Below, one piece after another: positions 14,102-33,171 of a DNA stretch of 64,000 nt. The stretch's first letter is position 1, and every line of letters starts with the position of its first letter. The position numbers and the translations under genes were made by a program. Source of the DNA: Actinomycetota bacterium (lineage in GTDB: Bacteria > Actinomycetota > Actinomycetes > Mycobacteriales > JACQDL01); the NCBI GenBank assembly GCA_016201065.1, contig JACQDL010000039.1, forward strand, positions 1,870-65,869, given 5' to 3'. The notes under the pieces were generated by a model. It saw only the letters and a list, made by a program, of their open reading frames with translations. It did no database searches and had not been told where the DNA came from.

Positions 14102-14134
14102 GGTGTCGTTCAGCGGGGCCCCCAGTCTCCGAGA

Positions 14135-15016: not shown

Positions 15017-15164
15017 GGCGGCCGAGACCGCCGGTGCCCCCTCGGCGAGGAACCGGCGCGTGGCGTTCCGCTCGGACCGCCTGGTCAGGCGCCGAGCAGC
15101 GGTGACCCGGGGAGTGCGTTCGGTGAACGCCGGCTCCCCGGGTCGCGTGCCGCCTGGTCCCGGC

Positions 15165-15572
15165 TCAGGCAGCGGAGCCGTCAGCCGTCGCGCCCTTCAC
15201 GCCGGTGACGGCGGCGTCGGCGAGCGCCGCCTGGGCGGTCTTGACGAGCGCGGCGAACGCCGCGGCGTCGTTGACCGCGAGGTCCGCCAGGATCTTGCGG
15301 TCAACCGCCACCTCGGCAATCCTCAGCCCCTGGATGAACCTGTTGTAGGTCATGCCGTTGGCGCGGGCGGCCGCGTTGATCCGGGTGATCCAGAGCTGCC
15401 GGAAGTCGCCCTTCCTCGCCCGCCGGTCCCGGTAGGAGTACTGGAAGGAGTGCAGGAGCTGTTCTTTGGCCTTGCGATACAGCCGCGACCGCTGGCCTCG
15501 ATAGCCGCTTGCGGCCTCCAGCGTGGTTCGGCGCTTCTTCTGGGCGTTGACCGCCCGCTTGACGCGTGCCAC
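15165..15572 (-). CDS. rplT: 50S ribosomal protein L20
   Basis: ORF 15165..15572. Sequence [42 protein letters not shown]. Confidence 0.97.
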
Positions 15573-15648
15573 GGATCTCGATCCTCAAATCTCGGCACCG
15601 CCGGCTAGCCGGCCGGTGGCGCGGTCTACGGGGAATTTCGGGTGCTGC

Positions 15649-15843
15649 TTACAGACCCAGCAGCTTCTTGACCCGCCGGGTGTCGGTGGCGGCGACCTCG
15701 GTGACGCCAGCCAAGCGTCGGGTCAGCGTGGTCCGCTTCCGCTCAAGCAGGTGCCGGCGGCCGGCCCGCTCGTGCACCAGCTTGCCGCTGCCGGTCACCT
15801 TGATGCGCTTCTTGGTGCCGCTGTGGGTCTTGTTCTTCGGCAT
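15649..15843 (-). CDS. rpmI: 50S ribosomal protein L35
   Basis: ORF 15649..15843. Sequence [34 protein letters not shown]. Confidence 0.97.
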
Positions 15844-15917
15844 GACAAAACTCTCTGCTCGGTCGGTGGTGCCTGGCGACAGGCGGCCCAGCGTGGTGCG
15901 GGACCGCCCCCGCGATG

Positions 15918-16565
15918 TCAGACGGTCGCGCCGTCGTCCGCGGTGACGCTGTCGTCCGCGGTCGACTCGGCGCCCACGGCCAGCTCGGCGTCCGCGGTCG
16001 AGTCGGCGCTCACGCCCGAGTCGGCGTTCGCGTTGGTCATCCCGCGTGACGGCTTCTTCTTGTGCGGGGCCATCACCATGATCATGTTGCGACCGTCCTG
16101 CTTCGGTGAGGCCTCGACGAAGCCCAGCTCGACGACGTCGTCGGCGAGCCGCTGCAGCAGCCGGAACCCGAGCTCCGGACGGGACTGCTCGCGCCCCCGG
16201 AACATGATCGTGACCTTGACCTTGTCTCCCGCGCGAAGGAACCGCTCGACGTGACCCTTCTTGGTCTCGTAGTCGTGCGGGTCGATCTTCGGCCGGAGCT
16301 TCATCTCCTTGATCACGGTCAGGCTCTGGTTGCGGCGGGCCTCGCGCGCCTTCTGTGCCGTCTCGTACTTGAACTTGCCGTAGTCCATGAGCTTGCAGAC
16401 CGGCGGCCGGGCCATCGGAGCGACCTCGACCAGGTCGAGGTCCGCTTCGGCGGCCAGCCGCAGCGCATCCTCGATGCGGACGATGCCGACCTGCTCACCT
16501 TCCGGACCGACGAGGCGAACCTCGGGAACCCTGATCCGCTCGTTGATACGGGGCTCGACGCTGAT
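15918..16565 (-). CDS. infC: translation initiation factor IF-3, ATC (non-canonical) start
   Basis: ORF 15918..16415 holds only the C-terminal two thirds. In-frame hand translation upstream gives [67 protein letters not shown] at 16565-16563 is preceded by GGAGG (plus strand cctcc, 16570-16574). The length 15918-16565 is 216 codons, in frame. Confidence 0.9.
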
Positions 16566-16848
16566 GGGACCTCCTCAGGGTTGGCGGACCGATGGCGACC
16601 CACCCTCCGCAGCCCCGCCAGCACGGCAGAGGCCCCGCAGCGATGTGCTCGCGGGGCCCACTCGACCGGTCGACCCAACCTCACGGCGCGGCGGCCGTCG
16701 CCGCCAGGCACCGCGCGATGAGCGCGCATCACGCCGACACCGTCGCCGCGATGGACCGGACCCGGCCACCGGTAGGCGGCTCGGGTGGGAGCGGGGCTCC
16801 ACTTACACGTCCCCGAACGGGGGTCCGGGGACAGGTCGCGGGACCAGA

Positions 16849-17379
16849 CTAGCAGCGTTCGGCTCGATGAGACCGATCAGTCGAGGCCCGGTGCAGGGCC
16901 CGCAGGGCGCGGACCGCGGCCACCGTCCGGTCACCGTCCACCGCCTGCACGGCCATCAGCGCGATCTGCTCGTCGGCCGCGAGCTCCAGCGTGGCCCACG
17001 GCGCCCCGTCCCGGAAGCTCACCGCGCGGACCAGGCCCCAGGGCACCTGGTAGTGACCGACGATGTTGCGTATCCGCAGACCGTCCGGGGTGGCCTCCAG
17101 CCGCGCCCTGGCCAGCCACAGCAGCCCGACGGCCACCGCGACCCCGACGCCGAAGATGCCGATCCGGTCGGCCAGCCCGACGCTGGTCTGGCCATTCGGG
17201 GTGGTGACGATCCGGTCCGAACCGGAACTCGGCAGGGTCAGGGTGATGGCCGCGAAGATGACGACGACCGCCGCCGCGGCGCTCCAGCAGACCATCCGCA
17301 TCCGCCGCGGCCGGACGGTCAGCCGGCCCGCCGGCGCCGGGCCGGTGGGGTCCACCGGGTCCACCGGGTCCGCGAGCAC
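16849..17379 (-). CDS. PH-domain (bacterial pleckstrin-like) membrane protein
   Basis: ORF 16849..17379. Two predicted TM helices (AAAVVVIFAAITLTL, IGIFGVGVAVAVGLLWLA) are followed by LEATPDGLRIRNIVGHYQVPWGLVRAVSF, which matches the low-molecular-weight-antigen/PH-domain family pattern. Confidence 0.7.
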   Translation of the reverse strand: MLADPVDPVDPTGPAPAGRLTVRPRRMRMVCWSAAAAVVVIFAAITLTLPSSGSDRIVTTPNGQTSVGLADRIGIFGVGVAVAVGLLWLARARLEATPDGLRIRNIVGHYQVPWGLVRAVSFRDGAPWATLELAADEQIALMAVQAVDGDRTVAAVRALRALHRASTDRSHRAERC

Positions 17380-17381
17380 CG

Positions 17382-18257
17382 CTACTCCACGATCTTGGAG
17401 ATCGGAAGCTCCAGGATGTCCCGGCCACCGGCCGCCTTCAAGGCCGGGATCAGGGTGTTCACGCCCCGCTTGGCCACCACGGTCTCCACCGCGCGCATCT
17501 GCTCATCCGCGAGCCGGGTCACCGTCGGGGAGCTCAGCGCCGGCAGCAGCCCGAGGACCTGCTCCAGCCGGTCGGCGGGGACGTTCAGCTTGAGCAGGAC
17601 CTGGCTGCGGGCCCGGATCGCGCCGCGCAGCAGCAGGGCGATGTCCTCCATCGCGGCGCGCTTCGCCGGATCGGCGTACGCGGTGGTGTTCGCCACCAGC
17701 TCGGTGTAGCTGGTGAGCAGCGTGTCCAGGATCCGCAGGCCGTTCTTGCGCAGCGACGAGCCGGTCTCGGTGAGGTCGACGATGGCGTCGACGATGTCCG
17801 GCACCTTCGCCTCGGTGGCGCCGTAGGAGGGCACCACCATGGCCTTGACCCCGTGCCCTTCGAGGAACTGCCGGGTCAGCACCGGGAACTCGGTGGAGAT
17901 CCGGATCCCCGGTGGCAGCTCGGCCGCGCTCTGCCAGGGCGCGTCCTTCGGCACGGCGAGCACCACCCGGACCGGGTTCGCGGTCGCCTTGCTGTAGCGC
18001 AGCTCGCCGAGGCTGGTCACCTCCGCAGCGGTCTCGGTGATCCAGTCCCGGCCGGTGATACCGAGGTCGAACAGCCCCTGCTCGACATACTGGGGGATCT
18101 CCTGCGGGCGCAGGAACCGCACCCGGTCGATCCGGGGGTCGTCGATCGCCGCGTGGTAGTCGCGGTCCGAGCCACGCCGCACCGACAGGTCGGCGGCGTC
18201 GAAGAGCTCCAGGGTGGCCATCTCCAGCGAGCCCTTGGGGAGCACGACGGACAGCAT
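17382..18257 (-). CDS. hisG: ATP phosphoribosyltransferase (long form)
   Basis: ORF 17382..18257. Sequence MLSVVLPKGSLEMATLELFDAADL...RFLRPQEIPQYVEQGLFDLGITGRDW. Confidence 0.95.
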   Translation of the reverse strand: MLSVVLPKGSLEMATLELFDAADLSVRRGSDRDYHAAIDDPRIDRVRFLRPQEIPQYVEQGLFDLGITGRDWITETAAEVTSLGELRYSKATANPVRVVLAVPKDAPWQSAAELPPGIRISTEFPVLTRQFLEGHGVKAMVVPSYGATEAKVPDIVDAIVDLTETGSSLRKNGLRILDTLLTSYTELVANTTAYADPAKRAAMEDIALLLRGAIRARSQVLLKLNVPADRLEQVLGLLPALSSPTVTRLADEQMRAVETVVAKRGVNTLIPALKAAGGRDILELPISKIVE

Positions 18258-18339: not shown

Positions 18340-20113
<1,774 letters not shown>

Positions 20114-20117
<4 letters not shown>

Positions 20118-20713
20118 GTGGCCTCCTCGACCGAGATCAGCCGCTGCACGTACTTCGCCAGCACATCGACCTCGAGGTTGACCGGATCGCCGCTGGTGCG
20201 GGCACCGAGCGTCGTCCCGGCGAGCGTGGTCGGGATCAACCCGACCTCGAAGTAGTCCGGCCCGACCGCGGTGACCGTCAGGCTCACCCCGTCGACGGCG
20301 ATCGCGCCCTTCTCCGCCACGTAGCGGGCCAGCTCGACCGGCAGGCCGAACCGTACGACCTCCCAGGCCTCGCCCGGGGTCCGGGAGAGCACCGTTCCGG
20401 TGCCGTCAACGTGGCCCTGCATGATGTGGCCGCCAAGCCGGCCACCGGCCGGCACCGCCCGTTCGAGGTTCACCGGGTCTCCGGGGCGCAGCGCGCCGAG
20501 CGTGGTCCGGACGAGCGTCTCGGCCATGACGTCGGCGGCGAAGACGCCATCGCCGAGCTCGGTGACGGTCAGGCAGACGCCGTTCACGGCGATCGAGTCG
20601 CCGGGGCGGGCGTCGCTGGTGGCCAGCGGGGCGCGCACCCGCAGCACCGCGGACTGCCCGGTGGAGTTGACATACAGAAGCTCGCCGCGTTCCTCGACGA
20701 TGCCGGTGAACAT
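20114..20713 (-). CDS. ribE: riboflavin synthase (alpha chain)
   Basis: ORF 20114..20827 trimmed to ATG 20713 ([15 protein letters not shown]...[13 protein letters not shown]). A GAGGGAGGG Shine-Dalgarno lies just upstream. Confidence 0.94.
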
Positions 20714-20846
20714 CCGGTCATGCCCTCCCTCGCGGTCGGTCGCGACGACCGGGGAGGCGCTGGGAGGTACGGCGGAACGCGGCCCAGGAACGGCCGCGAC
20801 CCTCGCGGTCAGCACGCCGGGAGCCACTCGGCCACCGGCACTGCCC

Positions 20847-20974
20847 GCGCGCTACCTCCCATCCGGACTTTCACCGTCGGTGCCGGAATCTCACCGGCTC
20901 CACCACTGGCTGGCTGCCAGCGGGTCGCGGACTGTCACCGCCGGTTCGGAGTTTCACCGACCCCGGAGCGCGCG
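20847..20974 (-). ncRNA. FMN riboswitch (RFN element) controlling ribE-ribBA-ribH
   Basis: Minus-strand RNA reads CGCGCUCCGGGGUCGGUGAAACUCCGAACCGGCGGUGACAGUCCGCGACCCG...GGAGCCGGUGAGAUUCCGGCACCGACGGUGAAAGUCCGGAUGGGAGGUAGCGCG. This matches the conserved RFN core segments (GGUGAAAnUCC, ACCGGCGGU, CCGACGGUnAAAGUCCGGAUGGGAG) and has a closing P1 helix. Confidence 0.9.
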
Positions 20975-20992
20975 ATCTTGCGTGTCGGCCCC

Positions 20993-21096: not shown

Positions 21097-22233
21097 TCAG
21101 CGGGGTGGGTAACCGGTGACCGGCTCGGGTCCGAGGTCGACGATGGCCGCGACCGGACCGCCACCGTCGGGTCCCTGGTGGGCCGCCGAGACTGAGACGA
21201 ACACCGCGGGGTCCCCGGTCACCGAGGCGGCCACCCCGCCGACACACGCCTTGATCTGCCGGTGCCAGTGCACGTCGGAGTCGTCGAGCATGGCGTTGCG
21301 CCGGCCGCGCACCATCCCGTCCGCGGATGCCTCGCACTTGAGGAAGACGTTGACCAGCCGCCCGGCGAGGTCCCCGGAGCGGGGCCGGTCCGGCAGCGCC
21401 AGGCCGGCGTCGGCGATCGCGGTCCAGATCCCGTCGGCGTCCAGCGCGTCCCGCATCACACCGTGCCCGATCCGGTACCGGCCGCCGATGCCGCGCACGT
21501 TGCCGACCACGACGACCTGCGCCCGATCCAGCTCCACGCCGGAGGAGCAGCTCGCGACGGCCGAGTAGACGGAACGGTCGTGCAGCACGACCGAGTCGTC
21601 GGGCATCTCGATCTCACCGAGCGCGACCGCGATGCCCAGCGCGGTCGCGCCGTTGGACAGGTCCATCGACTCGTGGGTGTTCTCCGTCCACACCCGCTGC
21701 CCGCGCGCCTTCGCCTCGCGGATGGTCTGGATCGTCAGCAGCGGGGTCTTGGTCTGCACGTAGTGGACATCCGCCGGGTCGATGATGCCGGCGCCGGCCA
21801 TCGCGGCCCGCACCCCGGCCGCCACCTTCTCGATCATGCCGCGCCGCCCGATCTCCTCCGGACGCAGCGGCTCGCTCATCGCGAAGCCGACCGACAGCCG
21901 GGGCTCGTCGCTGGCCACGGCCTGGTCGGCCGGCACCGTGGCGAAGATCGTGGCGTGCGGCGAGATCACCCCATCGGTGCCGCCGGACCAGACGATCGGC
22001 ACCCCGGCGACCTCCTCGGCGCTGCGGCTGCCCTTGGTGACCAGCACCTCACGGAACGCCCGGTCGGCGATGATCCGGGTGTAGTCGTTGACCCCGCCAT
22101 TCCCCTCGGTCTTGCCGATGACCGCGATCACCCGGTCGGCCTCCAGCACCCGCGAGTCGATCAGCTCGGCCAGCCCGGAGGCGTCCGAGACGTGCCGCAG
22201 CGGGATCTTGCGCACCTCGATGGGCTCGGGCAC
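21097..22233 (-). CDS. ring-opening amidohydrolase, cyanuric acid amidohydrolase (AtzD/TrzD) / barbiturase family
   Basis: ORF 21097..22233, 378 aa. From my memory of AtzD it aligns along the full length. Matching segments are [78 protein letters not shown] and [11 protein letters not shown]. Confidence 0.85.
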
Positions 22234-22239
22234 GGTGGC

Positions 22240-23229
22240 TCACCCTTCCTCTCGTACGGCGGTCTGGCCTGGCTCGGGTGTCTGTGGTGGCTCGTCGGGG
22301 AGTACGACGGTGCCGGCTTCGCCCCGGCTCGCGGCGGAGATCCGGTCCAGGTCGGTGATCACCGCGCGCCGGCCGCCGTGCTCGACGAAACGGCAGGCGG
22401 CCTCGACCTTCGGCCCCATCGCCCCGCTGCCGAAGTGCCCGGCGGCGGCGTACCGGCGCAGCTCGGCGACCCCGACCACACCGAGCGGGCGGGCGGCGGG
22501 CGTCCCCCAGTCCAGCATTGCCGCGGGTACGTCGGTGGCGATCACCAGCACGTCGGCGCCGACGCTGCGGGCCAGTATCGCGGCGGCGAGGTCCTTGTCG
22601 ATCACGGCCTCGACCCCGCGCAGCCCGCCGTCCGGATCGCGCACCACCGGGATCCCGCCACCGCCGCCGGCGACCACCACCACCCCGGCTGCGGCGAGCA
22701 GGCCGACGACCGGCGCGTCGAGCACCTCCAGCGGCTCCGGGCTGGCGACCACCCGGCGCCAGCCGCGCTCACCCCGGTCCTCCCAGACCTGGCCGTGGTC
22801 GATCATGGCCTTGGCCTCGGCCGCCGGCAGGTACCGGCCGATCGGCTTGGTGGGGTGGGTGAAGCCGGGGTCCGCGGCGTCGACGACGGTCCGGGTCACC
22901 ACCGCGGCGACCGGCCGGACCAGGCCCCGCGCGGCCAGCGCCCGCTCCACCGCGTTGATGAGGATGAAGCCGATCGTGCCCTGGGTCTGCGCGCCGCACC
23001 AGTCCAGCCCGACCGGCGGGACCACGGCGGCGGCGAGCTCGTTCTTCACCAGCAGGTTGCCCACCTGCGGGCCGTTGCCGTGGGTGACCAGCACCTCGTG
23101 ACCGGTGGCGATCAGCTCGGCGATCGGGGCGGCGGCCCGGTTGACCGCGGCGATCTGGTCCGCCGGGGCGGCGCTGCCGTCCGGCGCGGTCATCGCGTTG
23201 CCGCCGAGGGCCACCAGCAGCCGGCTCAT
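22240..23229 (-). CDS. arcC: carbamate kinase
   Basis: ORF 22240..23229. MSRLLVALGGNAM...VTHGNGPQVGNLL...GGGGIPVV are carbamate kinase / amino-acid kinase motifs. Short Pro-rich C-terminal extension. Confidence 0.88.
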   Translation of the reverse strand: MSRLLVALGGNAMTAPDGSAAPADQIAAVNRAAAPIAELIATGHEVLVTHGNGPQVGNLLVKNELAAAVVPPVGLDWCGAQTQGTIGFILINAVERALAARGLVRPVAAVVTRTVVDAADPGFTHPTKPIGRYLPAAEAKAMIDHGQVWEDRGERGWRRVVASPEPLEVLDAPVVGLLAAAGVVVVAGGGGGIPVVRDPDGGLRGVEAVIDKDLAAAILARSVGADVLVIATDVPAAMLDWGTPAARPLGVVGVAELRRYAAAGHFGSGAMGPKVEAACRFVEHGGRRAVITDLDRISAASRGEAGTVVLPDEPPQTPEPGQTAVREEG

Positions 23230-23245
23230 CCGGAAATCCGCCCGC

Positions 23246-25072
23246 TCATACGAAGTCCAGCTCGGAGTGGGGTTGGCCGGCGAGCGCGGCGTACCCGGGT
23301 CCGCGGTCGAAGAACGGCGCGCCCGGGTCGCGCCCGGCCCGCAACCGGGAGCGCAGCGCGTCGCTGGCCGGCTCGTCGACCTCGCCGTCCTGGCCCAGGA
23401 CCACCCCGTAGTCGGTCCGCGCCCCGGTCGCGCTCACCTTCCCCCAGGCGAGGTCGCGGGCCACCTCCCCGTACGGCCGGTCCAGCGGGTCACCCCAGCC
23501 ACCGCCCCCGGTGGTGCGGATCCGGATCAGCTCGCCCGCCCGCACCGGCTCGGCGTCCGCCAACGCGTCCACCTCCCGCTCGTCCGGCCCACCGGGGTCG
23601 ATGACCACTGCGAACGGTTGGCCGGCCCGGCCGCCGTTGACCCCCCAGCAGGACAGCATCGACCGGTCGGCGATCGACATGAAGTGCGCGTCCCGCAGCA
23701 TCCGGATGTGCTTGTCGTAGCCGAGGCCGCCGCGGTGCCGCCCCGGCCCGCCGGAGTCGACGGCCAGCCCGAGCCGCTCCACCACGAACGGCCAGCGGGA
23801 CTCGGCGAACTCCACCGGGATGTTGCGGGAGTCGGGGACCACGTGGATGGTGTCCTCGCCGTCGGCGTAGTACCGGCCACCGGAGCCGCCGCCGAGCACC
23901 TCCCGCATCAGGTACGGCGCGCCGTCGGCGTCGGTGCCGTACACGCCGGTGTAGCGGATCGTCTCCTGGTCGGCCGGCATCCGGCCGTCGGTGGCCTTGG
24001 CCAGCACGCCGGCGAGCACCCCGAGCAGCCGCAGGATGACGAACGTGCGGGCGTTCGTCGGCGCCGGGAAGATCGGGGTGAGCAGGGTGCCCGGCGGCGG
24101 GAAGCGCATCTCGATCAGCGGCACGACGCCCTCGTTGACGTCGAGCTCCGCCATCCGCTCCGGGGTGTCGGCGAGGTTGCGCAGGATCGGCGCGAGCCAC
24201 TTCTTGAGAAAGTTGCCGTCGGCGTGGTCGGCACAGTGGTTGATCGGCCCCTTCGCCTGCGGTGAGGTGCCGGTGAAGTCCAGCACCAGCCGGTCGGGTG
24301 TCTTCGTCAGGGTGATCCGCTGGGCGTGCAGCTTGGGCGGGTCGACGCCGTCGTGCTCGGCGTAGTCCTCCCACACGTAGCTGCCGTCCGGAATCTTGGC
24401 CAGCACCTCGGTGCGGAACGCCCGGGTCGTCCGGTCGATGATCGCGTCGAAGCACCCCTCGACGGCGGCGACGCCGTACCGGCCGAACAGCTCGGCCAGC
24501 CGGCGGGCACCCATCAGGCACGCCGAGCACTCCGCGTCGAGGTCGGCGGCGAGCGACTCGGGCATCCGGGAGTTGCGGGTCATGATCTTCAACGCCGCAT
24601 CGTTGGGGACCCCGGCGTCCCAGAGCCGGATCGGCGGCACCATCAGCCCCTCCTCGTACACGCTGCGCGCGTGCGAGGGCATCGACCCGGGGACGGCACC
24701 GCCGATGTCGTCGTGGTGACCGAAGGCCTGGACGAACGCGACGACCTGCCCGTCGTGGAAGACCGGCACGGTGACGCACAGGTCCGGCAGGTGCCCGATG
24801 CCGCCCTCGGAGGAGTAGACGTCGTTGTGGAAGAACACGTCGCCGGGGCGCATCGTCTCGGCCGGGTAGTCGCGGACGATCGGGTGGACCAGCGCCGAGT
24901 AGGAGCGGCCGGTGAGCTTGCGCAGCCGCCGGTCGTGGATGCCGGCCCGGAAGTCGTGCGCGTCGCGGATCATCGGGGAGCGGGCGGTCCGGCCGATCGC
25001 CGTCTCCACCTCGGCCTCGATCGAAGCCAGGGTGCCCTCGACGATCTCCACCAGGATCGGGTCAGCCGACAT
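23246..25072 (-). CDS. hyuB: hydantoinase B / oxoprolinase family protein (ATP-dependent N-methylhydantoinase B-like)
   Basis: ORF 23246..25072. MSADPILVEIVEGTLASIEAEVETAIGRTARSPMIRDAHDFRAGIHD is a typical HyuB N-terminus. Overlaps the hyuA stop by 11 nt. Confidence 0.9.
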   Translation of the reverse strand: MSADPILVEIVEGTLASIEAEVETAIGRTARSPMIRDAHDFRAGIHDRRLRKLTGRSYSALVHPIVRDYPAETMRPGDVFFHNDVYSSEGGIGHLPDLCVTVPVFHDGQVVAFVQAFGHHDDIGGAVPGSMPSHARSVYEEGLMVPPIRLWDAGVPNDAALKIMTRNSRMPESLAADLDAECSACLMGARRLAELFGRYGVAAVEGCFDAIIDRTTRAFRTEVLAKIPDGSYVWEDYAEHDGVDPPKLHAQRITLTKTPDRLVLDFTGTSPQAKGPINHCADHADGNFLKKWLAPILRNLADTPERMAELDVNEGVVPLIEMRFPPPGTLLTPIFPAPTNARTFVILRLLGVLAGVLAKATDGRMPADQETIRYTGVYGTDADGAPYLMREVLGGGSGGRYYADGEDTIHVVPDSRNIPVEFAESRWPFVVERLGLAVDSGGPGRHRGGLGYDKHIRMLRDAHFMSIADRSMLSCWGVNGGRAGQPFAVVIDPGGPDEREVDALADAEPVRAGELIRIRTTGGGGWGDPLDRPYGEVARDLAWGKVSATGARTDYGVVLGQDGEVDEPASDALRSRLRAGRDPGAPFFDRGPGYAALAGQPHSELDFV

Positions 25073-27188
25073 GGCCAGCCGCCTCCCCTGCCGCGTGCTC
25101 CGCTGGCACGATCACCAGGTTGCCGAACCGGTCGACCCGGGCCGCGTACCCGGGGTGGAGCGGGACGGTCGCGCCGTACTCCTCGATGATCGCCGGTCCG
25201 GTGATCGCCGCTCCAGTCGCCAGCTCGGCCCGCTGGTAGATCGGGGTGTCGAGGTGGGTGGCGTCCCCGGCGCCGGTCCCGAAGCACACCGGGCGGGTGC
25301 CGGACATCACTGGCGGCGCGGGCGGGCGGCCGGTGTCGGGTTCCTCCCGCAACCGTGGCCGGCGGATCGGCCCGACGCCGGTGACCCGCAGGTTCACCCA
25401 CTCCACCGGCTGCTCGGGACGGCCGGCGAAGCTGTAGCCATACAGCCGGTGGTGCGCCTCGTGGAACGCCGCCGCCACCGCGTCGGCGTCCAGCAGCGGC
25501 TGGACCGGGACCCGCACCTCGAAGGCCTGCCCGAAGTACCGCAGGTCGGCCGAGCGGACGTAGCGGTGGCCGGACCGCGCGAACCCCTCGGCGTCCAGCG
25601 CCTTGGCGGCCCGGTCCTCCAGCGCGGCGAAGTGCGCGGTGACCGCGGCGACGTCCAGGCGCTCGTGCCGGGCCACGAAGGTCTGCACGTAGTCGTTCTT
25701 CACGTCGACGCTGAGCAGGCCGAACGCCGACAGGTTGCCGGGATCGCGCGGCACCACGACGGTCCGCACCCCGAGGATGTCCATCAGCCGGCAGGCCAGC
25801 AGCGACCCGGAGCCGCCGAAGGTGGTCAGGACGAAGTCCCGCACGTCCAGCCCGCGCCTGACGGTGATCTGGCGCAGCGCGTTGGCCTGGTTCCACGCGG
25901 AGATCTCCAGGATGCCGGTGGCGGTGGCCGTCGCGTCCAGGCCGAGCGCCGCGCCGAGCTCGGCCAGCCCGTCGCGGGCCGCGTCCGGATGCAGCGGCAC
26001 CTCGCCCCCGAGCAGGCTGGCCGGTATCCGGCCGAGCAGCAGGTGCGCGTCGGTGACGGTGGGCTGGCTGCCGCCGCGGCCGTAGCAGAGCGGCCCCGGG
26101 TCGGCGCCGGCCGACGCCGGCCCCACCTTCAGCGTGCCCTCCCGGGACAGCCACGCCACCGACCCGCCGCCGGCACCGACGGTGCCCACGTCGATCATCG
26201 GGATCTTGGAGGGGTAGCCGCCGACCGTCCCCTCGGTGGTCAGCGTCGGCTCACCGGAGAGCACCACCGACACGTCGGTGGAGGTGCCGCCGCCGTCCAG
26301 GGTGAGCACCCGGTCGAAGCCGGCGGCCTGCGCGACCAGGGCGGCACCCAGGGCGCCGGCCGCCGGCCCGGACAGCACGGTGGTGATCGGTTGGTGCACG
26401 ACCTCCTCGGCCGAGAGCACCCCGCCGTTGGACTTCATGATGTAGAACGGCACGCCGGGCGCCAGGCCGCCGAGGCGGGACCGGATCGCGGCGACGTACC
26501 GCCCGACGGTGGGTTTGACGGCGGCGTCGACGAGGGTGGTCATCGCCCGCTCGTACTCCCGGTACTCGGCGAGCACCTCGCTGGACAGCGACACCACCGC
26601 CTCGGGGTGCTCCTCGGCGAGGATCTCCCGCATCCGACGCTCGTGGGCCGGGTTGGCGTAGGCGTGCAGGAAGCACACGCCGAGGGTGCCGATCCCACGC
26701 TCCCGGTAGCCACGGGCGACCTGGCGGGCGCCGTCGTCGTCGAACGGCCGGAGCTCGCCGCCGGTGTGATCCAGCCGGCCGCCGACGGTGCGGACCAGGT
26801 CGGCCGGGACGATCCGGGGTGGTTTGACCCAGAAGTAGCTGTTGCCGTAGCCGTCCGGGACGCTCTGCCGGGCGATCTCCAGCAGGAACTCGAACCCCTC
26901 GGTGGTGATCAGCCCGATCCGCGTCACCTGCCCCTGGAGGAGCTGGTTGGTCGCCACGGTCGTGCCGTGACAGACGGCGACCAGCTCGGCGCCGCCAACG
27001 CCGTCGAAGCGGGCGAGGACCTTGCGCAGCCCGTCGAGGAACCCGACGGCCGGGTCGGCCGGGGTGGAGGGCGTCTTGGTGGTGACCAGCTCGCCGGTGT
27101 GCTCGTCAAAGGCCACCACGTCGGTGAAGGTGCCGCCGGTGTCGATCCCGACCCGGACCCGACGCCGCTGGCCGGCCGTCCGTCGCAC
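25062..27188 (-). CDS. hyuA: hydantoinase A / oxoprolinase family protein (ATP-dependent N-methylhydantoinase A-like)
   Basis: ORF 25062..27260 trimmed to GTG 27188 (VRRTAGQRRRVRVGIDTGGTFTDVVAFD). GGGAGG Shine-Dalgarno at 27192-27200 on the minus strand. Confidence 0.9.
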   Translation of the reverse strand: MRRTAGQRRRVRVGIDTGGTFTDVVAFDEHTGELVTTKTPSTPADPAVGFLDGLRKVLARFDGVGGAELVAVCHGTTVATNQLLQGQVTRIGLITTEGFEFLLEIARQSVPDGYGNSYFWVKPPRIVPADLVRTVGGRLDHTGGELRPFDDDGARQVARGYRERGIGTLGVCFLHAYANPAHERRMREILAEEHPEAVVSLSSEVLAEYREYERAMTTLVDAAVKPTVGRYVAAIRSRLGGLAPGVPFYIMKSNGGVLSAEEVVHQPITTVLSGPAAGALGAALVAQAAGFDRVLTLDGGGTSTDVSVVLSGEPTLTTEGTVGGYPSKIPMIDVGTVGAGGGSVAWLSREGTLKVGPASAGADPGPLCYGRGGSQPTVTDAHLLLGRIPASLLGGEVPLHPDAARDGLAELGAALGLDATATATGILEISAWNQANALRQITVRRGLDVRDFVLTTFGGSGSLLACRLMDILGVRTVVVPRDPGNLSAFGLLSVDVKNDYVQTFVARHERLDVAAVTAHFAALEDRAAKALDAEGFARSGHRYVRSADLRYFGQAFEVRVPVQPLLDADAVAAAFHEAHHRLYGYSFAGRPEQPVEWVNLRVTGVGPIRRPRLREEPDTGRPPAPPVMSGTRPVCFGTGAGDATHLDTPIYQRAELATGAAITGPAIIEEYGATVPLHPGYAARVDRFGNLVIVPAEHAAGEAAGHVG

Positions 27189-27348: not shown

Positions 27349-28041
27349 CTAGCGCGGAGCGATGGTCAACACGTACAGGGCAGCCACGGTCCCCACGCTC
27401 ATCAGCGGCGAGACGACCCACACCTCCACCCTGTTGCCGGTCCGGGAGATCAGCGGGATCTCGAACCGCATCTTGATCGGCCACAGGAGCGGGACGCCCC
27501 GCTCGGTCATGAAGTCGCCCGCGAGGTGGACCAGGCACCCGAACCCAACCAGCCAGGGCAACCACACCGGCTCGTCGGGGAGCCACTGGTCGATCATCGC
27601 CGTACCGAGTGTCGCGGCGATGACCACCGGCCCCCACGCGCGGACGCCGTCACCACCGGGGTGCAGGTGCAGCGCGATGCCGGCGAGCGCGAGCAGGACG
27701 AAGGTCACCCCGACCGCGAAGTACCGCCCCAGGTAGTGCACCCCCGCCCAGCTCCCGCCACCCGCCGCAGCGGCGAACAACAACGAGTGGGTCGCGTGCC
27801 GGTGCCCGCCGGAGACCCGCTCGACAAAGCGGGTGAGCACCTTCGTCACCGGCCCGAGGGCGTTGGCGATGGTGCCACCGTGGTGGTCGAGATCGGGGAT
27901 CAGGGCCGCACCGGCTGCGAGCGCGGTCCCGACGATCACGTCGTGCGCGCTGAGCGTCGTGTGCAGCCAGATCGGCGGAAGGGTCGGGGCGAGGGCCGCC
28001 CAGGCGAAGGCGCCGCTGATGGCGTGCGAGTGTCCGAGCAC
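27349..28041 (-). CDS. membrane-bound metal-dependent hydrolase, YdjM/DUF457 family
   Basis: ORF 27349..28098. The probable start is GTG 28041 (VLGHSHAISGAFAWAALA), or GTG 28062. Multiple TM helices, the IPDLDHHGGTI and GHRHATHSLLF His motifs, and a HLAGDFMT motif are present. Confidence 0.7.
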   Translation of the reverse strand: MLGHSHAISGAFAWAALAPTLPPIWLHTTLSAHDVIVGTALAAGAALIPDLDHHGGTIANALGPVTKVLTRFVERVSGGHRHATHSLLFAAAAGGGSWAGVHYLGRYFAVGVTFVLLALAGIALHLHPGGDGVRAWGPVVIAATLGTAMIDQWLPDEPVWLPWLVGFGCLVHLAGDFMTERGVPLLWPIKMRFEIPLISRTGNRVEVWVVSPLMSVGTVAALYVLTIAPR

Positions 28042-28472
28042 GAGCCTGGACGCTAACAGCACGCACCGACACGTTGCCGACGTACCTCCGCACGCCACCC
28101 GTTGCGGTGCGGGCCGGGCGCGGGCTGGGGCTCCCCAGATCCGGTGACGCAGGCTCCTCCGGTCGCCCGCCAGCCGATGGGTGCGACCGTGGATGTTTCC
28201 GACCTTGTCGACCCATCGTCAGCAATCCGGGCGATGAGCACTTCCGACATGATTGCGAGCCGTTGCGCACCGCAAACTCAGGGGCGCAGCGCAAGGCCGT
28301 CGATGTTCGGGTTGCGCGACGCGCCCGGACGGCTTCGGTCGGGTAGCGGAGGTCAGCTACCTCGGCCATGTCTATGGCACCCGGATCGCATTGGACCGGA
28401 TGCTGCCGCGACCGGCGGACGATCGTGCAGGTCGGCACTGACCGTCCCCGTACGCGGGACCCGGCCGAGCCT

Positions 28473-29435
28473 TCACGCCTCCGACGTCCCGTACGGCCCG
28501 AGAAAACGCTCACCATCAAAGTGGATGAGATGGGTCGGATTGTCCGCGCACCACGCTTCCGTCTCCCAGGCTATGGCGGCCAGGTACCTACGCATCTCGC
28601 GGCGATCAGGAAAACACGACACGTAAACCAGACCGGCGGAGGAGCCGGCAAAGAGTGACGTCAGCTCGCCGTGACGCTTTCCGTCGATCGGTCCGTGCGA
28701 GGATGTGGCTTCCAGCAGCACGAGCCAATTCTTCTCCGGCAAGTGGACGACAAGATCGGGCATCTTGCCGTGAGTGTTGACCGTGACGCCAAGCGCCTCC
28801 AACGCCGCCTGGTCGAAAACCGCCCACTTCGTGTCCGCGTCGCCGATGTAGAGCACCTCGCCGCCGGGCATGAAACGGGGACAGAAGTCCTCAACGATCT
28901 GCTTCAGGAGAATGTTCTGCCCGCCCGGGCTCAGAGTCAGCGCCGACCCGCCTGGCAAGGTGACCGGTATCCGGTTCATCTCGCGCGCAGCGTTGTAAAG
29001 AGCCCGCAGACCAGGCACGTCCTTGAGGTACCGCTCCAGGAGAATTGCGTGATCGTCTTGGCCAATCGTCCTGACGACGTCAAGCGCGCGCGGGTGGATG
29101 CAGTAACACCAACGAGGCGAGTTCACTGGCCGATCGGGTTTGTCGGGATTCTGCTCAACAAGCAGGGCCTCCGCGAACTGATGGAGTGTGAAACGTCGGA
29201 TTGTCTCGCGCGTGTTCGGTGCGTAATCCCGGTCGTACTCGTCGCGGGCCCAGTCCATGATCGCGCGGGTGCCAAGCAGCGGATTCGCGACATGGCTCCA
29301 CGGTGTTGTCGGAGTCAGGCCAAGTAGTGCCAGGACAACAAGCGCCGATCTCTCGTTCGTTCGCTCGCGGTCAAACCCCAGCTCTGCCAGCAACACCCGC
29401 GCTTCTCGAATTCTGTGGGCGGCATGCTCGTTCAC
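28473..29435 (-). CDS. type II restriction endonuclease, BsuBI/PstI family
   Basis: ORF 28473..29435, 320 aa. N-terminal HTH-like region, and a C-terminal catalytic region (PDLVVHLPEKNWLVLLEATSSHGPIDGKRH) as I recall for BsuBI/PstI enzymes. 4-nt overlap with the upstream methyltransferase. Visibly lower GC than flanking DNA. Confidence 0.8.
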   Translation of the reverse strand: MNEHAAHRIREARVLLAELGFDRERTNERSALVVLALLGLTPTTPWSHVANPLLGTRAIMDWARDEYDRDYAPNTRETIRRFTLHQFAEALLVEQNPDKPDRPVNSPRWCYCIHPRALDVVRTIGQDDHAILLERYLKDVPGLRALYNAAREMNRIPVTLPGGSALTLSPGGQNILLKQIVEDFCPRFMPGGEVLYIGDADTKWAVFDQAALEALGVTVNTHGKMPDLVVHLPEKNWLVLLEATSSHGPIDGKRHGELTSLFAGSSAGLVYVSCFPDRREMRRYLAAIAWETEAWCADNPTHLIHFDGERFLGPYGTSEA

Positions 29436-30976
29436 GCGGCAATTCCGCGCGCAGTGACTACCTTGTTCACGATGGCATCGAGCTCAGCCTGGTCAGGTAG
29501 GAGTACCGAACGGTCAGCTCCGAGGGCGCGAAGCTGGGCGACCGATGGAAAACGGAGGGTACGCAGGTCGCCGGCGTTGACCTGAGTGTGACCAGAAAAT
29601 GTTCTGAAATATGTGTCGACCACGCTACTGTTCAACCAGTAGCTCAAGCCGAGCGCCAGCGGCAGATCGAGTCCCGCTCCGCGGACGTGCAGGACATTGA
29701 CATGATTCTCGAAGGCAACGGGGTCGGCGCTTTGCTCAGCGAGCCACACCGCGGCAACAACCCGGCGTCGCTCCTCCTTTGCCGAAAAACGCTTCACGAG
29801 TACGTAGTTGCCGGGGGGAAGAAGTAGCTTCTCGTCGGCCGGCTCAGTGACAAGGAAACCCTGCGCCTTACGAATATCGCGCGGCCATTCCACAACGCCT
29901 GAGCGGAGGTTCCCGGGATAGACCAATGGTACAGCGCGATCACGGTCAGCAGGCACGAGAGAGGTGCGGGAGCGGAAGTCAACAACACGACCAGTCGATA
30001 CCTGGACTCCAAGATCGGAACAGGAAGCAGGCATCGACGTCATCAGTTCGGCAATCGTGGTGTCATCGTCGCCGGCCGGTATCCGAATGAAGCGGTGAAC
30101 GTCGCCAGAGTTCACGACGGCGGAGTACGGTACGACGCGGACCGACGCCGGGTCCTTGTGTCCGTGGCTCACCGTGAGGACCACGTCCTCGCCCTTTCGG
30201 CCGCGTGTTGCCGCAAAAATAATGTTCTCCTGCAAGACGCCGGTCTCCGAAAAGACGGTGGATCGCGACTCGAAGATGTGGATGTGGTCCAGCGCCACCA
30301 TGTCCAGCATGAATCGACGGAACTGAGCGAAGTATGGGCCGTTGGCGAACGAACGCGGCGTGATGGCGACGAGTTGCCCGTCCGACGAGAGCGCCACGGT
30401 GCCGAGCGCGAGGAAGGCGGCGTAGAGGTTCGGGCACTCGACGCCCTGCTGCAACAGCGCCTTCCGCTGCGCAGAGGAGGAAGCAAGCTTGCGATACGGC
30501 GGATTCATGATCACGATGTCGAACGGCTCATCGACCGATGGGTGCCGGTCGAGCAGACCGGTTGATAGGTCGATGAAGTCACCGACAACGACCCCAGTGG
30601 TGACCCGCAATCCGTACCGGTCGAAGGTCTGCGTGATGTCCGCCAAGGTTTCAGCGAGAGCCTTGGCCACAGCTGCGTCGATCTCGACGGCGACTATCTC
30701 AAGATCGATTTCCAGACATTCACCCAGGACGCGGGCCGCGAGCGCGGCCGCGAGCGCACCTGTGCCGGCTCCAGGATCGAGGACCCTGAGCCGGCCGGAC
30801 AGTGGCAGACGAGGAAGCGCGGCGATCAGGGCAGCCGCAGCCTCCGGCGTGAAGAACTGGCCAAACTTGGCTTGATCGACGTCGTTGAGACCCGCGAGGC
30901 ATCGGACACGACGCGCTTCGGCGCGCTCCCTGAGCCGCAGCGCGTCGCGCTGCCGATCTGCCGCTGACACCGCCAT
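29432..30976 (-). CDS. N6-adenine DNA methyltransferase (gamma class, Eco57I/PstI-methylase-like)
   Basis: ORF 29432..31063. The likely start is ATG 30976 (MAVSAADRQRDAL...). Carries FGQFFTP, motif I VLDPGAGTGALAAA and motif IV IVIMNPPYRK. Confidence 0.88.
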   Translation of the reverse strand: MAVSAADRQRDALRLRERAEARRVRCLAGLNDVDQAKFGQFFTPEAAAALIAALPRLPLSGRLRVLDPGAGTGALAAALAARVLGECLEIDLEIVAVEIDAAVAKALAETLADITQTFDRYGLRVTTGVVVGDFIDLSTGLLDRHPSVDEPFDIVIMNPPYRKLASSSAQRKALLQQGVECPNLYAAFLALGTVALSSDGQLVAITPRSFANGPYFAQFRRFMLDMVALDHIHIFESRSTVFSETGVLQENIIFAATRGRKGEDVVLTVSHGHKDPASVRVVPYSAVVNSGDVHRFIRIPAGDDDTTIAELMTSMPASCSDLGVQVSTGRVVDFRSRTSLVPADRDRAVPLVYPGNLRSGVVEWPRDIRKAQGFLVTEPADEKLLLPPGNYVLVKRFSAKEERRRVVAAVWLAEQSADPVAFENHVNVLHVRGAGLDLPLALGLSYWLNSSVVDTYFRTFSGHTQVNAGDLRTLRFPSVAQLRALGADRSVLLPDQAELDAIVNKVVTARGIAA

Positions 30977-31114
30977 CCGCGCTCCCGCCTCCCCAAGTGT
31001 CCACGAAAGGCTAGCGCGAGAGGCTGACGTCTCCGCTGCGGCTCGCTTGGCTACGCAGGCCACGGGTCGGGCGGCCGGGTCGTCGAACCGCGCTTCCGGC
31101 CGCCCCAGCGGCGC

Positions 31115-31324
31115 TCAGGCGAGGTGGTCGAACTCGCCCTTCTTGGCGCCGTCCAGCCACGCGGCGAACTCGGCGGGGGTGTAGCGCAGGACCGGACCGG
31201 CCTGGTCCTTGCTGTCCCGGACCTCGATGACGTCCCCGTCGCGCCGCATCTCGACGCAGTTCATGTTGTTGCCCGAGCGGGTCGCCTTGATCCACTGGGG
31301 GGCCTCGCCGGCCTCGATGCTCAT
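31115..31324 (-). CDS. DUF397 domain protein (BldB/WhiJ-associated small protein)
   Basis: ORF 31115..31324. WIKATRSGNNMNCVEMRRDGDVIEVRDSKDQAGPVLRYTPAEFAAWLDGAKKGEFD is the DUF397 pattern. ATGA overlap with the upstream XRE gene. Confidence 0.85.
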   Translation of the reverse strand: MSIEAGEAPQWIKATRSGNNMNCVEMRRDGDVIEVRDSKDQAGPVLRYTPAEFAAWLDGAKKGEFDHLA

Positions 31325-32178
31325 ACCGGGTGCTCCTCGAACGGGACGCTCTGCGGGTAGACGTGGTCGATGATACGGGCATAGCGCGCGACCTGGTCCG
31401 GCAGCTCGAAGTAGGAGCTGCCGACCGCCGACTCGACGTAGACCACGGTCGGGTCGTCCGGGTCCTCGAACCGCATCAGGGTGAAACCGCCGGCCATCGC
31501 CGCGTGGGCGCCGCTCTCCCAGGGCAGGATGCGCAGCTCGACCCGGTCGTCGGCGGCAAGCTCGCGCAGGTGGGCGAGCTGCCCGGCCATCACGGCGGGG
31601 CCGCCGACCTGCCGGGCCAGCGCCCCCGGCCCCAGCACCACCTGGAGCCGGACCGGCGGGGTGCGCCCGAAGATTATCTCCTTCCGCTGCATCCGGATTG
31701 CGACCCGCCGCTCGACGGCCTCCTCGTCCGGGTCCGACTCATGCGCCCGCTCCACCTCGCGGGCGTAGTCGGCGGTCTGCACCAGCCCCAGGATCACGTC
31801 CGGCATGTAGCTCTGGATCACCGAGGCGGCCGACTCCAGCCCGATGTAGAACCCCATGCTGGTCGCGGACAACGTCTCCTTGTCCTCCCACCAGCCCCGG
31901 GACTGGGAGCCGACGGCGAGCTCGTAGAGCGACAGCGTCGTCGGCCGGTCCAGGCCGTAGAGCAGGCTCAGCTCCAGGACGGTGCCGGGGGTGACCGCCA
32001 CCCGGCCGCTCTCGTAGCGGTGCAGGGTCGCCTTGGAGACGACACCCGAGACGCTGACGTCGTCGATCTTCTTGCCGGCTCCGATCCGGGTCTGGCGCAG
32101 CCGCCGGCCCAGCTGGCGGCGGACGATGGTGGGCCCACTGACGGACATCCGCATCTCCCGAACGTTGAGCGAGGACAA
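31321..32178 (-). CDS. XRE-family HTH regulator, WhiJ-like (DUF5753 C-terminal domain)
   Basis: ORF 31321..32178. The start is possibly the internal ATG 32148 (MSVSGPTIVRRQLGRRLRQTR). HTH region KATLHRYESG. C-terminal region VLGLVQTADYAREV...LRILPWESGAHAAMAGGFTLMRF. Confidence 0.85.
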   Translation of the reverse strand: MSSLNVREMRMSVSGPTIVRRQLGRRLRQTRIGAGKKIDDVSVSGVVSKATLHRYESGRVAVTPGTVLELSLLYGLDRPTTLSLYELAVGSQSRGWWEDKETLSATSMGFYIGLESAASVIQSYMPDVILGLVQTADYAREVERAHESDPDEEAVERRVAIRMQRKEIIFGRTPPVRLQVVLGPGALARQVGGPAVMAGQLAHLRELAADDRVELRILPWESGAHAAMAGGFTLMRFEDPDDPTVVYVESAVGSSYFELPDQVARYARIIDHVYPQSVPFEEHPV

Positions 32179-32256: not shown

Positions 32257-32715
32257 ATGACGCACGACACACCCAGCCTCCGTCGCCGCGTGGCGCGATC
32301 AATCACCCGGTCTCGCGACGCGGTAGCCGGCCAGGGGCGCGACGGGCCGCCGGCGGGGTGGGCGCTGCTGATCCCGGCCCGCACCGAACTGCCCTGCGAG
32401 CTGGTTCCGGTGCCGCTGACGGCGGCCGGCATCAGCGACTCGATCGGCGGGGGCCTGCTGGAGGAGGTCGTCTGCGGCCCCGACCCGGACGGGGCACACA
32501 CCGTCTACCAGGACGCCGCCCGCGAGATGAAGGCGCTACCGGACAACCCTCGGGCCGCGCGGCTGGCCGCCCGGTTGGGGTGGCCCTACCTCACCGGCCC
32601 GACCCCGCTGCGCGGGGACGCCCTCGTGCTCGGGCTGGACGAACACGGTGCGGACGCCGACGTGCCCGATGTCGTCCTGGCCGCCGCCGTACGCGAGGGG
32701 CTGCTTCGCGGTTGA
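32257..32715 (+). CDS. DUF3846 domain protein
   Basis: ORF 32233..32715 with ATG 32257 preferred. ALLIPARTELPCELVPVP...GGLLEEVVCGPDPDGAHTVYQDAAREMKALPDNPRAARLA...GDALVLGLDEHGADADVP follows the DUF3846 pattern from memory. Divergent from the XRE gene. Confidence 0.55.
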   Translation: MTHDTPSLRRRVARSITRSRDAVAGQGRDGPPAGWALLIPARTELPCELVPVPLTAAGISDSIGGGLLEEVVCGPDPDGAHTVYQDAAREMKALPDNPRAARLAARLGWPYLTGPTPLRGDALVLGLDEHGADADVPDVVLAAAVREGLLRG

Positions 32716-32719
32716 CCCG

Positions 32720-32769
32720 GCGCCGCGGCTCAGTCCCGGCGGAATGGGCTGCGGGCCGGCCGCCGCAGG
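32720..32769. repeat. 50-bp direct repeat, copy 1 (duplicate of the CN-hydrolase 3' end)
   Basis: gcgccgcggCtcagtcccggcggaatgggctgcgggccggccgccgcagg is identical to 34484-34533 except for one base. This is visible in three reading frames of the ORF track: [28 protein letters not shown] and [13 protein letters not shown] each occur twice. Confidence 0.9.
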
Positions 32770-33087: not shown

Positions 33088-33158
33088 GTGCGGCAAGATC
33101 CGCCCATCCTTTGCGGCAGAATACGCACCCACCTTGCGGCGAGATACGCACGCCCAGC
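33088..33158 (+). repeat. three 23-bp direct repeats (TGCGGC-N4-AT-N-CGC...CCA) immediately upstream of the DUF4143 ATPase gene
   Basis: The three copies are gTGCGGCaagATcCGCcCAtcc, tttGCGGCagaATaCGCaCCCAcc and tTGCGGCgagATaCGCaCgCCCAgc. The TGCGGC cores sit at 33089, 33112 and 33135, exactly 23 bp apart. The block ends 13 nt before GTG 33172. Confidence 0.7.
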
Positions 33159-33171
33159 GTATCGTGGGCGC

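Follow-up and report, generated by a model that had tools for sequence, protein, structure and literature searches.

A barbiturase gene of an Actinomycetota bacterium stands with an ATP-dependent hydantoinase-type pair and a carbamate kinase in what is probably an oxidative pyrimidine catabolic operon

The biochemistry of oxidative pyrimidine breakdown has been known since the 1950s, and its genetics is almost undescribed. Modules of a carbamoyltransferase and a carbamate kinase that serve ureide catabolism include the one that converts oxalurate to oxamate and carbamoyl phosphate in the fermentation of allantoin, and the E. coli ygeW-yqeA cluster. The described systems that resemble the locus analysed here are (i), the classical pathway of Rhodococcus erythropolis, for which the account of Soong et al. 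(2001/2002) given in PMC3758960 names a uracil/thymine dehydrogenase, a barbiturase and a ureidomalonase; (ii), the cyanuric acid operons, in which atzD or trzD is accompanied by atzEGH-atzF or biuH; (iii), the ATP-dependent lactamases, namely N-methylhydantoinase, 5-oxoprolinase and the caprolactamase CapAB, a family in which the substrate is phosphorylated in HyuA, tunnelled to the metal site of HyuB and hydrolysed there (PMC8453981); and (iv), the known ureide clusters, where a carbamate kinase always occurs with a carbamoyltransferase, as in Rubrobacter with UGTCase and carbamate kinase (PMC4016543). No paper in the searchable literature links barbiturase with HyuAB or with carbamate kinase, and none assigns a gene to uracil dehydrogenase; open-access papers since 2017 seldom mention barbiturase and never treat its gene cluster, and a paper on the nitrogen transcriptome of M. 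smegmatis covers the reductive pathway only.

Here we analyse a stretch of 64,000 nucleotides from an Actinomycetota bacterium (Mycobacteriales; GenBank assembly GCA_016201065.1, contig JACQDL010000039.1, positions 1,870 to 65,869), hereafter the window, which carries a quartet of genes: hyuA and hyuB for the two subunits of an ATP-dependent hydantoinase/oxoprolinase-type enzyme, a carbamate kinase gene and a gene for a ring-opening amidohydrolase of the AtzD/barbiturase family (Table 1). A first, sequence-only reading of the window had described four co-directional, tightly packed genes and had assigned each to its family; all four open reading frames (ORFs) are indeed intact on one strand, separated by exactly the overlap and the two short gaps it had given, and Pfam and NCBIfam agree with the four assignments (HyuA, HyuB, carbamate kinase, AtzD/TrzD amidohydrolase). 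The quartet is no assembly artefact, because the identical arrangement recurs in four independent assemblies (GCA_016178905.1 and three independent read-set assemblies). We propose that the quartet probably makes up the 3' half of an operon that actinobacteria have inherited vertically and that serves the oxidative catabolism of pyrimidines, a conclusion that applies at the level of the pathway and is drawn from comparison of sequences and gene orders. The ring-opening enzyme and the overall route were known already. The new elements are the kinase-barbiturase pair, which replaces the barbiturase-amidase pair, and a dedicated HyuAB subfamily, an organisation that is undescribed in the searchable literature.

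Judged by its sequence, the protein encoded by the last gene of the quartet is a barbiturase ortholog and no diverged member of its family. It matches PF09663 (Amido_AtzD_TrzD) with 486 bits over model positions 1-358 of 358 and TIGR02714 with 575 bits. When all solved structures were searched, the best match was the R. erythropolis barbiturase 5HWE with 649 bits, the cyanuric acid hydrolases following with 319, 315, 260 and 246 bits; aligned with MAFFT, the protein shows an identity of 81.0% to 5HWE across 368 residues, against 48% to the cyanuric acid hydrolases 5T13 and 6BUM. A neighbour-joining tree with the cyanuric acid hydrolases as outgroup places it within the clade that holds 5HWE. 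The three Lys, the Ser of repeats A and B and the Arg of repeats A and C are invariant, K162 and S230, which form the Ser-Lys dyad of domain B, and R53 of domain A being conserved in all 110 aligned sequences. Every motif that the sequence-only reading had quoted for this protein was found in it, including the third-repeat motif SVSAAHQGP, which had been taken as a hint of diverged specificity; the same letters stand in 5HWE, so that the motif is a barbiturase signature, and the idea of a diverged specificity does not survive the comparison. Because the last gene of the quartet is the ortholog of a characterised barbiturase, the substrate of its product is almost certainly barbiturate.

A further residue separates the two groups of enzymes. 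In cyanuric acid hydrolases Arg188 (A. caulinodans numbering) is one of three Arg that touch the three carbonyls; an Asn takes its place in the window protein (Asn194), in 5HWE and in all 108 members of the clade. Cho et al. (PMC4051656) described a barbiturase subgroup without Arg188, naming the residue Gln where our alignment has Asn, and reported that neither barbiturase nor cyanuric acid hydrolase accepts the substrate of the other. That the protein might nonetheless be a cyanuric acid hydrolase, in an operon degrading cyanuric acid derived from s-triazines, is suggested by the NCBIfam equivalog NF052395 (CyanAcHdlAtzD), which it passes with 472 bits against a cutoff of 360, and by the label 'cyanuric acid amidohydrolase' that close homologs carry in some sources. 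We consider this hardly credible, as the barbiturase scores twice as high as the cyanuric acid hydrolases, the whole clade has Asn at the Arg188 position, barbiturase is inactive on cyanuric acid (PMC4051656), and the neighbourhoods contain no biuret hydrolase, AtzEGH or allophanate hydrolase; the comparison with the solved structures and the Arg188 position led us to reject this identity. The barbiturase clusters do share with the cyanuric acid operons the Toblerone fold and Ser-Lys chemistry of the ring-opening enzyme (PF09663/TIGR02714), but the window enzyme falls in the other clade and lacks Arg188, and none of the enzymes for biuret, carboxybiuret or allophanate that lie downstream in those operons occurs in the barbiturase clusters. 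Near-identical proteins are publicly labelled 'barbiturase', 'cyanuric acid amidohydrolase' or 'ring-opening amidohydrolase', and the misnaming of barbiturases by NF052395 may inflate the counts of s-triazine and cyanuric acid degraders in soil metagenomes.

Barbiturase orthologs at 78-88% identity are abundant in Actinomycetota. The conservation of the linkage was followed in two censuses: a forward census of 84 loci, made up of the best 80 of the 562 relatives found in a scan of one genome per species and of four exact look-ups, and examined by tblastn with the proteins of the window and of its relatives; and a reverse census of 80 loci centred on metagenome HyuB orthologs that are 78-87% identical. 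In the forward census a carbamate kinase gene lies immediately 5' of the barbiturase gene, on the same strand, in 66 of the 81 loci that are long enough, and of the 63 loci that extend 9 kb or more upstream, 44 contain HyuB. When the two censuses are pooled, the kinase adjoins the barbiturase in 85 of 105 loci and HyuA is adjacent to HyuB in 100 of 107, while CoxG (41/59) or a hydrolase (39/59) is found 5' of HyuA and a molybdenum hydroxylase (Mo-hydroxylase) lies upstream (13/20). The metagenome HyuB orthologs of the reverse census are always in this cluster, and the tight quartet, with 3-60 nt between HyuB and the kinase, occurs in nine loci (L015, L019, L029, L030, L039, L048, L051, L054 and L058). 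The linkage is far above chance, and the expectation that the neighbourhood of the quartet would be conserved across Actinomycetota thus holds. The sequence-only reading had named two findings that would together count against it, a place of the amidohydrolase inside a characterised clade and a loss of the linkage in relatives; the protein does lie in the barbiturase clade, and the linkage is conserved. Hundreds of species of actinobacteria carry this cluster of about 12 genes (the scan of one genome per species gave 562 relatives), and HyuAB and the kinase travel with barbiturase in dozens of genera with no described role in the oxidative pyrimidine route.

The consensus order of the cluster was taken from the gene tables of two loci (L083 and L084), an annotated Rhodococcus megaplasmid and family searches, and its genes all lie on one strand: a PucR-type regulator and XdhC; a RutG/uracil-type permease; a CoxM-CoxS-CoxL-type Mo-hydroxylase (NF040766 'CODH group 5', 1427 bits); CoxG; a CN_hydrolase or a PRK07486-type amidase; HyuA-HyuB; optionally an SDR or NmrA protein, or a Bmp/ABC transporter; a family-III CoA-transferase; a fused AccD/AccA-type carboxyltransferase with weak similarity to malonate decarboxylase; the carbamate kinase; the barbiturase; and a second permease or a malonyl-CoA-synthase-like ligase. 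The complete form was seen in L136, L159, L160 and L112. All neighbourhood proteins were clustered, and there were no further recurrent partners, the other families being housekeeping (infC, rplT, pheS, purH) or concerned with maturation of the molybdenum cofactor. The Mo-hydroxylase is present in the cluster of relatives (L029, L083, L165 and others) and has no copy in the window. It holds a constant place in the order, after a uracil-type permease and before the genes for barbiturate, which suggests that it is the uracil/thymine dehydrogenase and that its automatic name, 'aerobic carbon-monoxide dehydrogenase large subunit, group 5', is misleading; the cluster supplies a concrete candidate for this dehydrogenase.

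The overall route would lead from uracil through barbiturate and ureidomalonate to malonate or malonyl-CoA and nitrogen. With the pathway knowledge collected in PMC3758960, the Mo-hydroxylase would oxidise uracil to barbiturate, the barbiturase would open the ring to give ureidomalonate, the CN_hydrolase or amidase would cleave the acyclic ureide or amide and release malonate, and malonate would be turned into acetyl-CoA by the joint action of CoA-transferase and carboxyltransferase (or by the ligase). The sequence-only reading had instead seen in the quartet a diverged AtzD enzyme which, together with HyuAB and the kinase, would degrade an N-heterocycle by an undescribed pathway, the compound being taken here as neither a pyrimidine nor a barbiturate. 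The combination of genes is indeed undescribed in the searchable literature, but the high identity to a crystallised barbiturase with the same signature motifs, the lack of any distinction between barbiturases from kinase-type clusters and those from classical ones, and a cluster context of pyrimidine and malonate genes make such a pathway very improbable. The comparison with the solved structures and the barbiturase alignment already largely refute it, and the cluster of the relatives matches the known oxidative route.

The classical Rhodococcus pathway has in common with the window the barbiturase itself, with the same signature residues, and the predicted intermediates barbiturate, ureidomalonate and malonate; the Rhodococcus loci L033, L036, L041, L042 and L050 also carry CoA-transferase and carboxyltransferase genes. 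The arrangements differ in what surrounds the ring-opening enzyme. In Rhodococcus and Streptomyces a PRK07486-type amidase follows the barbiturase directly, and neither a carbamate kinase nor HyuAB lies beside it; in Haloechinothrix, too, the barbiturase is followed by an amidase and there is no kinase. Loci of the window type, by contrast, have the kinase directly before the barbiturase; they also hold HyuA and HyuB as a pair, and upstream either a CN_hydrolase or an amidase of 42% identity. An amidase directly downstream of the barbiturase was found in 8 of 76 loci, all but one of them without a kinase, so that the two arrangements, which coincide in 1 of the 76, are nearly mutually exclusive and the textbook pair of barbiturase and amidase is not what most carriers use. 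The chemistry of the barbiturase itself appears to be the same in both: 5HWE shares 99% identity with the ortholog of R. qingshengii (L033), whose locus has the amidase next, and when residue columns were compared no column of the alignment separated kinase-type from amidase-type barbiturases. A different chemistry of the kinase-type enzymes was on this ground rejected.

The cluster adds two elements to the textbook route, a HyuAB subfamily and a carbamate kinase that no carbamoyltransferase accompanies, and their chemistry is predicted by no known pathway. HyuA consists of the Pfam domains Hydant_A_N, Hydantoinase_A and Hydant_A_C, and among solved structures it is closest to N-methylhydantoinase 7HK5 (480 bits), followed by caprolactamase CapA 6YRA (387 bits); HyuB matches Hydantoinase_B with 472 bits, 7HK5 with 208 and CapB with 180. 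Like the ATP-dependent lactamases (PMC8453981), the pair has a two-subunit architecture, the aspartates of the ATP site and a metal site: in the alignments HyuA keeps the CapA residues D11, D295, T299 and D302, and HyuB the CapB tetrad Asp-His-Asp-His (D41/H99/D102/H124). By these residues, HyuAB is catalytically intact. Its identity to any member that has been characterised, however, is only about 35-45%, and its scores lie well below the NCBIfam equivalog cutoffs, the caprolactamase models giving 488 and 199 bits where the cutoffs are 1000; in these comparisons HyuAB was orthologous to no member of known substrate (caprolactamase, N-methylhydantoinase, oxoprolinase, acetone/acetophenone carboxylase). 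The HyuB orthologs are 76-87% identical and the next relative 42%. Searched with HyuB, the plasmid database gave three orthologs, of which two belong to records as large as chromosomes, and no other match exceeded 42%; since identity there falls directly from 76% to 42%, HyuB forms a discrete subfamily, and since only the three orthologs were returned, that search gave no evidence of the subfamily outside the cluster. HyuAB of the window thus belongs to a tight subfamily of its own, confined to the barbiturase cluster. We know of no ATP-dependent lactamase that is paired with a carbamate kinase.

The kinase, too, is conventional by sequence. It passes NF009007 (301.7 bits, cutoff 266), lies slightly under the cutoff of TIGR00746 (343 against 358 bits), aligns over its full length (residues 3-311) with the enzymes of P. 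furiosus (1E19, 269 bits) and E. faecalis (1B7B, 258 bits), and has the conserved motifs GGNA, HGNGPQVG, GGGGIPV, VIDKD and MGPKV; by these measures it is a bona fide carbamate kinase. Its surroundings recall the ureide modules of carbamoyltransferase and kinase, where a kinase likewise stands in a nucleobase cluster with a Mo-hydroxylase and a permease of the xanthine/uracil family, but those modules all hold a carbamoyltransferase that makes carbamoyl phosphate, and none is present in the 166 barbiturase-cluster loci. Family clustering and Pfam revealed no recurrent carbamoyltransferase in these loci and none around the window genes, and clustering of the proteins, inspection of the unlabelled families and Pfam searches of gap ORFs revealed no recurrent urease or urea carboxylase in the neighbourhoods. 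The possibility that one of these three enzymes is hidden among the unlabelled families was rejected, as those turned out to be infC, rplT, pheS, purH, XdhC, MobA-like and so on.

Because no carbamoyltransferase, urease or urea carboxylase recurs nearby, HyuAB would be the sole ATP-handling enzyme without a job. No described pathway accounts for an ATP-dependent hydantoinase pair and a carbamate kinase beside a barbiturase, as the sequence-only reading had noticed; its idea that the carbamoyl unit is harvested as ATP is possible, the step that forms carbamoyl phosphate being the missing piece. Ureidomalonate is the one-carbon homolog of oxalurate, so that an energy-conserving removal of its carbamoyl group would be chemically analogous. 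We tentatively propose that HyuA transfers phosphate to the carbonyl oxygen of a ureido or imide group in a pathway intermediate (ureidomalonate, urea or a second ring such as 5-methylbarbiturate), that C-N cleavage in HyuB then yields a product of the carbamoyl phosphate type in place of free phosphate, and that the carbamate kinase turns this product into ATP, CO2 and NH3; cleavage would thus be driven by ATP at zero net ATP cost and without a carbamoyltransferase. Given the lack of a carbamoyltransferase and the phosphorylation-then-hydrolysis chemistry of HyuAB, this is the most economical proposal. We nevertheless hold the general idea, ureide activation by HyuAB with recovery of the ATP by the kinase, to be rather doubtful, and its specific form, in which the ureido carbonyl of ureidomalonate or urea is phosphorylated and carbamoyl phosphate rather than phosphate released, to be unlikely as it stands. 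If true, it would describe an ATP-neutral cleavage of ureides that is independent of carbamoyltransferases and, with urea as the substrate, a nickel-free and biotin-free degradation of urea widespread in soil Actinomycetota.

Our low confidence has its reason in the linkage pattern, which opposes a direct partnership of HyuAB and kinase. The kinase tracks the barbiturase and HyuAB tracks the Mo-hydroxylase module, and each occurs without the other nearby: HyuAB lacks a neighbouring kinase in L089, L115, L129, L148, L156, L011, L002, L063 and the plasmid pRZP2, while about 10 loci have the kinase-barbiturase pair with no HyuAB within 10 kb, and this pair may occur by itself, with a PucR regulator or an insertion sequence (IS) element in front of it. 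Insertions into the cluster lie between HyuB and the kinase in every case, so that the kinase is tied to the barbiturase and not to HyuB. The characterised HyuAB enzymes of the hydrolase type, moreover, all act on cyclic amides (PMC8453981). Other points come from the window itself, where the hydroxylase, CoxG, the CoA-transferase and the carboxyltransferase were undetected in the 64 kb, even as remnants at a relaxed E-value, and the permease was undetected as well; the pathway set may thus be incomplete here or completed elsewhere in the genome. To our knowledge, no hydrolase-type HyuAB releases an acyl or carbamoyl phosphate. All these points weigh against the HyuAB-kinase proposal or against a complete operon in this genome. 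Independent movement of the modules is illustrated by L165, the 505-531 kb region of plasmid pRZP2 of Rhodococcus sp. ZPP, which holds no more than the cluster's front half (XdhC, PucR, permease, CoxM, CoxS, CoxL, CoxG, HyuA, HyuB, NmrA) and has no barbiturase or carbamate kinase within 12 kb of it; the hydroxylase-HyuAB module can thus move without the kinase-barbiturase module.

The same pattern lends itself to the main rival explanation, in which two rings are opened by two enzymes. HyuAB would here act on a second product of the hydroxylase, most plausibly 5-methylbarbiturate derived from thymine, with ATP going to ADP and phosphate, and the kinase would be no partner of HyuAB and would play a different part in the branch that leads through barbiturase, such as the use of carbamoyl phosphate or carbamate from an attack of the CN_hydrolase or amidase on the carbamoyl group of ureidomalonate. 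This would agree with the co-localisation of HyuAB with hydroxylase and CoxG at loci that can lack barbiturase and kinase nearby (pRZP2, L089, L115, L129, L148 and L156), with the attachment of the kinase to the barbiturase, and with the ring-opening activity of all characterised hydrolase-type HyuAB, the closest solved relative being an N-methylhydantoinase. The CN_hydrolase directly before HyuA-HyuB also mirrors the order of classical hydantoinase and N-carbamoylase sets, and the carboxyltransferase, with its weak similarity to mmdA, could equally decarboxylate methylmalonyl-CoA. The kinase, on the other hand, is left without a source of carbamoyl phosphate, and the explanation presupposes that barbiturase does not accept 5-methylbarbiturate, which it is not known to do. 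We regard this explanation as a possible one, without considering it likely.

The assignment of the quartet to an oxidative pyrimidine operon also makes sense of a fifth gene of the window. The sequence-only reading had held that none of the enzymes that continue the known pathways is present; this is half true, as no amidase (candidate ureidomalonase) adjoins the barbiturase in the window, but the CN_hydrolase of the cluster is there, displaced by an island. This protein (Pfam CN_hydrolase, 169 bits) is 75-80% identical to the cluster copies, which 39 related loci keep just upstream of HyuA, and sits in the slot filled elsewhere by the 42%-identical PRK07486 amidase; its nearest solved relatives are PH0642, the omega-amidase Nit2 and beta-ureidopropionase, at about 97 bits. 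Between it and hyuA lies an accessory segment whose genes have no homolog in any of the 166 related loci (Table 1); its restriction-modification part has a GC content of 0.63-0.68 against about 0.73 in the flanks. Two direct repeats of 57 nt (32713-32769 and 34477-34533, 95% identical) bracket the DUF4143 gene, with the CN_hydrolase gene's own 3' end as the second copy. As the repeat duplicates this 3' end, it looks like the att-type duplication left by a small integrated element that targeted the CN_hydrolase gene. The quartet might then be a decaying remnant, in which the insertion of the island and the loss of modules have left a pathway that no longer works, and both the 7 kb of foreign DNA that interrupt the cluster and the five functions that are absent from the 64 kb could be read in this way. 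We find this improbable: the five surviving genes are full-length, with intact catalytic residues and native codon bias (the GC content at third codon positions, GC3, is 0.94-0.97, as is typical of native genes), tight quartets without CoA-transferase and carboxyltransferase between HyuB and kinase are common in other species, and the genes that are missing here may be located in another part of this metagenome-assembled genome, which is incomplete.

The cluster occupies a conserved position of the core chromosome. Downstream of the rib operon, the window retains a block, bPH_6-infC-rpmI-rplT-SpoU-pheST (9253-18257), that follows the barbiturase in many relatives (it also stands in L084 and L167), from which we infer this position. 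As the sequence-only reading had stated, the quartet stands between the riboflavin operon and an accessory island. An FMN riboswitch (Rfam RF00050, full length, 93.7 bits against a gathering score of 66.2) separates the barbiturase gene from ribE and marks the start of a separate rib operon, ribE-ribBA-ribH. The listed ribE ORF has 237 aa; riboflavin synthase models match from residue 39 and the source annotations give 199 aa, so that the true start lies downstream of 20827. In the lineage of the window, the rib operon and hisG lie between the barbiturate cluster and the bPH_6-pheT block.

Table 1. Features of the quartet and of its surroundings in the window
Feature	Coordinates	Strand	Remarks
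hyuA	25062-27188	minus	ATP-binding subunit; alternative start at 27260 (732 aa)
hyuB	23246-25072	minus	metal-binding hydrolytic subunit; 11-nt overlap with hyuA
carbamate kinase (arcC family)	22240-23229	minus	16 nt past hyuB
barbiturase ortholog, predicted (AtzD/Toblerone-fold ring-opening amidohydrolase)	21097-22233	minus	378 aa; 6 nt past the kinase gene
FMN riboswitch	20845-20975	minus	
ribE	20114-20827		
ribBA	18843-20117		
inserted accessory segment	27261-34493		7.2 kb between hyuA and CN_hydrolase
YdjM	27349-28098	minus	Pfam
BsuBI/PstI-type endonuclease	28473-29435	minus	Pfam
N6-adenine methylase (Eco57I/N6_Mtase type)	29432-31063	minus	overlaps the endonuclease gene; type II restriction-modification pair
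HTH_31/DUF5753 regulator	31321-32178	minus	DUF397 protein beside it (gene calls in L167)
DUF4143/AAA_14 ATPase	33088-34455	plus	
CN_hydrolase (nitrilase-superfamily amidase)	34494-35399	minus	displaced cluster member

Two further observations concern the sequence at large. The GTG start of hyuA at 27188 is preceded at 6-7 nt by GGGAGG, and for this gene different callers, independently, gave either 732 or 708 aa. Promoter and terminator scans of this 73% GC genome were uninformative, with one weak intragenic match and no terminators. Finally, a second island of low GC content (about 0.60 at 44-52 kb) occupies positions 40975-53078 of the window and represents a cell-surface polysaccharide locus. 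Besides a 411-aa protein without Pfam match (47477-48712), it encodes a Bac_transf priming transferase, an epimerase, a WecG-type glycosyltransferase, GT4 and GT2 glycosyltransferases, a Wzy_C polymerase/ligase-like protein, a GDP-mannose 4,6-dehydratase and a Wzz/tyrosine-kinase-like protein.

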